Shown: positions 555 through 779 of the stretch, piece after piece
How the letters are laid out: each line of letters opens with the position of its first letter
How positions within the stretch are numbered: the stretch's first letter is position 1
Virus record (IMG/VR): IMGVR_UViG_2541047169_000010
Reading direction: 5' to 3' (one strand)
Source of the DNA: a virus
Lineage: Duplodnaviria > Heunggongvirae > Uroviricota > Caudoviricetes
Length of the DNA: 9,599 nt
Position numbers and translations under genes: made by a program
The notes under the pieces: generated by a model
What the model saw: the letters and a program-made list of their open reading frames with translations, nothing else
Told to the model about the DNA's origin: nothing
The model's database searches: none

Positions 555-779
555 ATGAAGAAATTATTGGTAACCGTAAAGCCTTTTCAGGGAACAATTC
601 CGTTCCGTATTTTGCAGCGTGGTCGTGTTCTTGTTGAAGGTTCGTTCAGTGGTAAATGTACGCAATTACACTCCAGGACCTTTCAGGTGAATGCCACGAA
701 TGAAGAGCTAACCGTTGAGTGTACGATGAATGCCGCTAAATGCCGCATGGTATCCGCTGCATTACAGCCAGTGTGTTGA
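555..779 (+). CDS. hypothetical small protein (74 aa) between the lysis cassette and cos; function unknown
   Basis: ATG at 555 preceded by GGAGA at 545-549; ORF runs to TGA at 777-779. Product MKKLLVTVKPFQGTIPFRILQRGRVLVEGSF... is basic with five Cys and has no obvious signal peptide or TM segment. The six-frame track starts this frame at 537, but the RBS favours 555. No family recognised; appears more AT-rich by eye than the flanking phage genes. Confidence 0.45.
   Translation: MKKLLVTVKPFQGTIPFRILQRGRVLVEGSFSGKCTQLHSRTFQVNATNEELTVECTMNAAKCRMVSAALQPVC

Follow-up and report, generated by a model that had tools for sequence, protein, structure and literature searches.

Between the spanin gene Rz and the cohesive-end site (cos) of a lambdoid prophage lies a small open reading frame (ORF) of 74 amino acids (aa). 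Is it a gene, to which family does it belong, and what might it contribute to the phage? The ORF occupies positions 555 to 779 of a 9,599-nucleotide stretch of DNA, IMG/VR virus record IMGVR_UViG_2541047169_000010 (Caudoviricetes), which was analysed as a whole and is referred to here as the window. A first-pass annotation, made from the sequence alone, had presented the ORF as an orphan. We find instead an ordinary accessory gene that closes the lysis operon as an optional addition and belongs to a catalogued but uncharacterised, widespread family of Enterobacterales prophage proteins. The features of direct concern are these:

555..779, plus strand: coding sequence of the 74-aa protein, the stand-alone core domain of PHROG 2571 and a predicted small beta-sandwich (translation, PHROG match, homologues, ratio of nonsynonymous to synonymous substitution rates (dN/dS), reading frame, AlphaFold).

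546..550, plus strand: Shine-Dalgarno sequence GGAGA (sequence inspection).

531..794, unstranded: presence/absence cassette made up of the spacer between Rz and the ORF, the ORF itself and 15 base pairs (bp) past its stop codon (alignment with AP000400, phage VT1-Sakai).

The coding status of the ORF was examined in 13 nucleotide homologues from Escherichia coli, Salmonella, Enterobacter, Citrobacter, Yersinia and viral contigs, spanning six genera. Frame +1 was free of stop codons in all 13; each of the other five frames contained at least one stop codon and most contained several. Loss of the frame in related phages, which the first-pass annotation had said would speak against a gene, was therefore not observed. 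Nei-Gojobori dN/dS ratios ranged from 0.18 to 0.51 for pairs with dS between 0.3 and 1.06, and the excess of synonymous changes was significant (Fisher p 3e-7 to 3e-3). These substitution patterns indicate that window positions 555-779 are a genuine protein-coding gene under purifying selection.

The ORF runs from an ATG at 555 to a TGA at 777-779. Its length and the GGAGA ribosome-binding site had been read correctly from the sequence at first pass; the spacer between GGAGA and the ATG is 4 nucleotides (nt), rather than the 5 first given. In close E. coli and Salmonella homologues, GGAG (GGGG in locus L007) is kept 4-5 nt before the start. As had been judged by eye, the gene is more AT-rich than its neighbours: its G+C content (GC) is 45.3%, against 55.1% in Rz and 48.8% and 57.4% in the genes for the small and large terminase subunits, respectively, and its GC at third codon positions (GC3) is 44%, compared with 56-61% for neighbouring genes. 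The encoded protein is basic, as reported (predicted isoelectric point (pI) 9.7), and contains four cysteines (C35, C56, C62 and C74) in place of the five originally counted. No hydrophobic stretch was found, the maximum Kyte-Doolittle mean being 0.8 over 15 aa; since no 15-residue segment exceeds this value, neither a signal peptide nor a membrane segment is present, in agreement with the earlier description. Hydropathy, sequence and structural model alike revealed no N-terminal membrane segment, signal peptide or lipobox, and residues 2-8 form a core beta-strand in the AlphaFold model (predicted local distance difference test (pLDDT) 94). The product is most likely cytoplasmic. Two side observations concern the start region. 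Immediately 3' of the Shine-Dalgarno sequence, a second ATG (551-553) begins an ORF of 28 codons in the +2 frame. In addition, the database variant P0017 reads the +2 frame over approximately residues 6-19 before returning to frame +1, and looks like a compensated double frameshift.

The family membership of the protein was established by profile comparison. It matched the PHROG 2571 hidden Markov model (HMM) with an E value of 2.8e-28 (99.9 bits), residues 1-73 aligning to positions 100-172 of the 291-position profile and so to its central quarter only. The window protein lacks the full-length architecture of PHROG 2571 (approximately 280-290 aa) and represents a stand-alone form of the domain, as do most relatives of 70-82 aa. 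All nine remote or long relatives that were tested also fell in PHROG 2571. A first protein search recovered 66 homologue clusters at 90% identity, mostly of exactly 74 aa, extending down to about 56% identity and including Salmonella. A second search recovered 91 clusters and added members from Cedecea, Enterobacter, Citrobacter and Yersinia, all annotated as hypothetical proteins. An exhaustive HMM profile search of 1.84 billion representatives yielded 48 (50% identity) at E <= 0.001, most of them 70-85 aa long and sharing the pattern MKKLxVT...FxVxQxGxxLxEDxxSGK...YxRxYxVxA. The earlier view of an orphan without any family is overturned by the PHROG match, the 66 clusters, the 48 representatives and the existing RefSeq annotation.

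Neither of the two chemical properties first singled out is a property of the family. Only C35 is invariant, and then just inside the close clade; remote relatives carry 0-2 cysteines, placed at non-equivalent positions, and the family spans pI values from 4.4 to 9.9. The emphasis originally placed on cysteines and basic charge was thus misplaced. A cysteine or zinc motif was rejected on the first of these grounds, and a basic nucleic-acid-binding role on the second.

The same domain was also found embedded in larger proteins (145-280 aa) beside unrelated regions. In P0074 (L027 6001-6861; 280 aa) and in XSB42772.1 of Escherichia phage PhiR46_1 (286 aa) it is flanked by a helical N-terminal region and some 115 aa of C-terminal sequence; in P0068 (181 aa) it is fused to a PHROG 2091 region, and in P0077 (225 aa) it lies behind a PHROG 11851 region. 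Long PHROG 2571 members such as XSB42772.1 share with the window protein a significant HMM match and the interval between Rz and Nu1. In contrast to them, the window protein has its own start codon and ribosome-binding site and is without the helical N-terminal and C-terminal parts. The domain is a portable module that evolution has also used inside larger proteins. As a separate observation, P0002, encoded on a 1.5-kb NCBI contig, is a 125-aa protein in which the complete 74-aa sequence is immediately preceded, in frame, by a fused DUF1737 (PF08410) domain. Genes for DUF1737 are common in lambdoid lysis regions, and this fusion may be a rearrangement or reflect a lost stop codon.

Scans of the ORF against Pfam, NCBIfam and PADLOC gave no matches, and the window protein matched none of the PADLOC-DB defence HMMs at E <= 0.1. 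A profile scan of genome contigs with alignment A1 confirmed no locus, viral-contig scans with P0077 and P0084 found nothing, and literature searches by accession, peptide and locus description returned nothing on the 74-aa protein. None of the searched databases or literature assigned it a function.

The 74-aa protein is predicted with high confidence to form a compact six-strand beta-sandwich (pLDDT 91; predicted template-modelling score 0.77; all five models at or above pLDDT 84.7). Foldseek comparison of this model with BFVD and PDB gave no match at E <= 0.001, and a profile search of PDB sequences produced only noise (E >= 0.1, against alpha-crystallin). A relationship to the fibronectin type III domain of the lambda tail protein, gpJ FNIII-A (PF24801), was rejected: the window protein had no Pfam hit, and the best family member reached an E value of 0.02, far below the gathering threshold. 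A relationship to lambda J itself was rejected at an hhalign probability of 0.3%. Immunoglobulin-like (Ig-like) and fibronectin type III-like (FN3-like) domains of phage structural proteins, as in lambda gpJ FNIII-A, are parts of virion proteins, whereas the window protein stands alone.

The distribution of the gene was that of removable cargo. Of 5426 complete E. coli genomes, 1182 contained a 261-bp region with the gene, which matched at 1549 places with 83-100% identity and is annotated in RefSeq as encoding a hypothetical protein. Among 50,697 phage records, only 28 encode the protein (E <= 0.001); lambda is not one of them. Phage VT1-Sakai (AP000400) carries the same Rz end and the same cos-proximal sequence, with 10 bp replacing window positions 531-794. 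Of the two junctions, the ORF-less one occurred at full length in 1276 E. coli genomes and the one marking the 3' end of the ORF in 1164. Since VT1-Sakai has only 10 bp at this position and both alleles are common, the gene is optional and forms a precise cassette between the same flanks. Comparison of presence and absence across related prophages had been proposed at first pass, and its outcome bears out the proposal of accessory cargo in the Rz-to-cos interval, as do the lower GC and the occupation of other variable regions.

In E. coli and Salmonella the gene was always located 3' of Rz, with three kinds of packaging module downstream: a DUF1441/gpA terminase (as in the window and Stx2_95); YnfO together with an HNH endonuclease and another kind of small terminase subunit; and Nu1/gpA, in some cases accompanied by KilA-N or TonB-like genes. 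Members at 26-40% identity lay between a lysis cassette and terminase genes in one viral contig, in PhiR46_1-like phages, in Enterobacter and in Citrobacter. In Enterobacter, a shared block in which the PHROG 2571 gene is joined by a 67-aa gene and Nu1 stood behind two different lysis cassettes. A more distant member from Salmonella diarizonae was positioned between Q and the holin gene, and a Yersinia member lay in an early region near ParDE and ERF. The gene is an independent module of variable prophage regions, tied to neither a lysis type nor a head or terminase type.

A second conserved small gene (67-68 aa, PHROG 4280) was noted in prophages of Salmonella, Enterobacter and Citrobacter, where it follows the PHROG 2571 gene at a distance of about 40-60 bp. 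Its product carries the motif GWVxGWxVVR..PWHLxGVYAT..RYGSHxLGSDDFIS. The gene is absent from the window and persists as an N-terminally truncated remnant in one E. coli locus. The PHROG 2571 and PHROG 4280 genes may constitute a two-gene cassette. Genes of the PHROG 4280 type were recorded at the following loci:

L007, 5265-5471.

L035 and L036, 5305-5508.

L037, 5308-5511.

L009, 5182-5397.

A moron, as Hendrix and colleagues use the term, is an extra transcription unit in a lambdoid phage. The window gene is an extra gene between genes that are adjacent in related phages, and its base composition is unlike that of its neighbours. A promoter and terminator of its own were not found in a consensus scan, which could miss weak signals. 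In lambda, the Rz-to-cos interval is occupied by bor, an outer-membrane lipoprotein gene that lies on the opposite strand and is expressed in lysogens. The window gene resembles bor and moron genes in occupying this variable interval, in being present or absent between conserved flanks and in its deviating base composition. Unlike bor, it lies on the late strand, its product is predicted to be cytoplasmic, and neither a promoter nor a terminator of its own was detectable. With no membrane segment, and no signal peptide with lipobox, the protein falls outside the envelope lysis proteins of the Rz, Rz1 and Bor kind.

The window as a whole is the late region of an E. coli Shiga toxin (Stx)-type lambdoid prophage. 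Megablast located the region in Stx1a-, Stx2a- and Stx2c-converting phages and in other E. coli phages. The position between Rz and cos given by the first-pass annotation was upheld by Pfam assignment of Rz and Rz1 and by alignment of cos with the lambda ends. The surrounding features are:

64..531, plus strand: Rz (i-spanin), directly 5' of the 74-aa ORF and in the same late operon (PF03245, E 1.5e-39).

299-490: Rz1, embedded in Rz (PF06085, E 5.6e-21).

1011..1051, plus strand: lambda-like cos region, with GGGTCC at 1011-1016 and the predicted cohesive-end sequence GGGCGGGCGGGC at 1040-1051 (local alignment).

1241..1717, plus strand: DUF1441-type small terminase subunit (PF07278, E 3.8e-48).

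1714-3837: gpA-type large terminase subunit (PF05876 and PF20454).

4046-5431: portal gene.

7488-7814: cement (decoration) protein.

Approximately 460 bp without coding sequence separate the 74-aa ORF from the small terminase gene. The ORF is the last gene before cos, which lies about 260 bp downstream. Window positions 981-1045 aligned locally with the sequence across the joined right and left ends of lambda, lambda base 1 corresponding to window position 1040, and from this alignment we infer the nick positions at cos. On the 3' side of the cos element, an A+T-rich stretch at 1060-1240 (GC 36-42%) with a ATCATCATCATCATGATG run is probably cosB. The window also encodes a portal protein, a ClpP-protease/capsid fusion, gpZ and gpU. 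The fusion is a single 723-aa ORF at 5229-7400 that joins a ClpP-type prohead protease (PF00574) to a major capsid protein domain (PF25209); the GTG listed as its start falls within the 3' end of the portal gene. Elsewhere, at L005 199-1412 in the O157:H7 strain PV15-279, a prophage with an identical copy of the ORF has its endolysin gene disrupted by IS1203 (IS3 family) and is probably defective for lysis.

When is the gene expressed? A consensus scan of window positions 1-1400 detected no plus-strand sigma-70-like promoter, although weak or non-sigma-70 promoters would escape it. The single terminator-like hairpin, located inside the ORF (591-606), occurred at chance frequency, and the same scan detected none downstream above chance. 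There was no Rfam match at E <= 1, and on these grounds the idea of an RNA element or terminator rather than a gene was rejected. The ORF is co-oriented with the S-R-Rz late operon, and 23 nt separate it from Rz in the window. At three other loci (L003, L004 and L006, about 2990-3020), the usual Rz stop codon has been lost, Rz is 8-9 codons longer and its TGA overlaps the ATG of the ORF (ATGA), an arrangement that suggests translational coupling to Rz. The lack of detectable signals of its own, the co-orientation and the occasional ATGA overlap together point to expression by read-through of the Q-dependent late transcript. The ORF is thus most likely transcribed from the Q-dependent late promoter, its product being made late in lytic growth.

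What, then, might the product do? Our tentative preference, to which we assign a probability of roughly 0.4, is for a dispensable late-operon accessory gene whose small cytoplasmic product binds another protein, counter-defence or host takeover being the likeliest class of function. Under this proposal, the gene would be transcribed in the late operon from the Q-dependent promoter during lytic growth. Its product would be a small cytoplasmic module that binds another protein, and this binding would modulate a host or phage protein. The outcome would be an accessory fitness factor acting outside the core lysis and packaging machinery, most plausibly in counter-defence or host takeover. This class was reached by elimination, from the lack of co-variation with virion modules, dispensability for lysis and packaging, the lack of envelope targeting and the cargo-type loci occupied. 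An anti-defence or regulatory role, which had been among the first suggestions, is possible.

Several points weigh against the proposed counter-defence or host-takeover module. The assignment to counter-defence draws only on locus type, small size and patchy distribution, and the timing of expression was deduced from gene order alone. The promoter scan was a simple consensus match, blind to weak and non-sigma-70 promoters. The gene also adjoins the lysis cassette in most lineages, an arrangement that would fit a lysis-related role equally well.

The strongest rival follows from this frequent adjacency to lysis cassettes: a soluble accessory factor, made together with the spanins, that would tune the timing or completeness of lysis or egress. 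XepA and YomS are beta-sandwich proteins of Bacillus prophage lytic cassettes (PMC6834076), and the window protein would be comparable to them in position and in general fold class. By this analogy a lysis-associated function has some chance of being correct, at about half the likelihood of the counter-defence or host-takeover module.

A bolder form of the preferred proposal is rather unlikely. It would make the PHROG 2571 beta-sandwich a new portable counter-defence or host-takeover family, situated in late variable regions often beside the terminase, whose members would neutralise a host sensor or effector of late phage proteins.

Structural or packaging roles and lysogenic conversion are both less likely than a role in lysis. 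A virion or DNA-packaging accessory, such as a helper at cos or a small decoration or adaptor protein of the Ig-like or FN3-like kind, is improbable: the gene occurs with three unrelated types of terminase and head module, is absent from phages with the same head genes and gave the negligible hhalign probability against lambda J reported above. The window already encodes a cement protein, and the spread of pI across the family argues against a conserved DNA-binding role. A factor for lysogenic conversion or superinfection exclusion, made from the repressed prophage as bor is in lambda, had been offered at first pass and would share with bor its interval, with GC below that of the flanks and a patchy, cassette-like distribution. 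It is nonetheless very unlikely and no longer favoured, given that no plus-strand promoter-like site was found upstream and no terminator above chance downstream, that the gene is co-oriented with the late genes and apparently sometimes coupled translationally to Rz, and that a protein without signal peptide, lipobox or membrane segment would not be a surface protein. Finally, a non-functional or spurious ORF, also allowed for at first, could appeal to a GC3 atypical for the prophage and to occasional frameshifted or extended variants (P0017, P0001 and P0009), but is effectively refuted by the conservation of the frame across six genera and dN/dS well below 1, with the confident predicted fold and the conserved ribosome-binding site speaking against it as well.

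The gene is one more conserved hypothetical phage gene and contradicts nothing in current understanding. Approximately one-fifth of complete E. coli genomes carry it, and a single genome often has it in several prophages; its carriers include Stx1-, Stx2a- and Stx2c-converting phages of enterohaemorrhagic E. coli. Despite this frequency, neither Pfam nor NCBIfam has a family for it, and it is without functional annotation or a specific structural relative. The gene is short and under selection, its product has a confidently predicted fold, and otherwise identical backbones occur naturally with and without the gene; these properties make it an easy and well-controlled target for deletion and complementation. 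Such a target is suited to asking what lambdoid accessory genes add to their phages, be it in lysis, in counter-defence or in the fitness of Stx phages.
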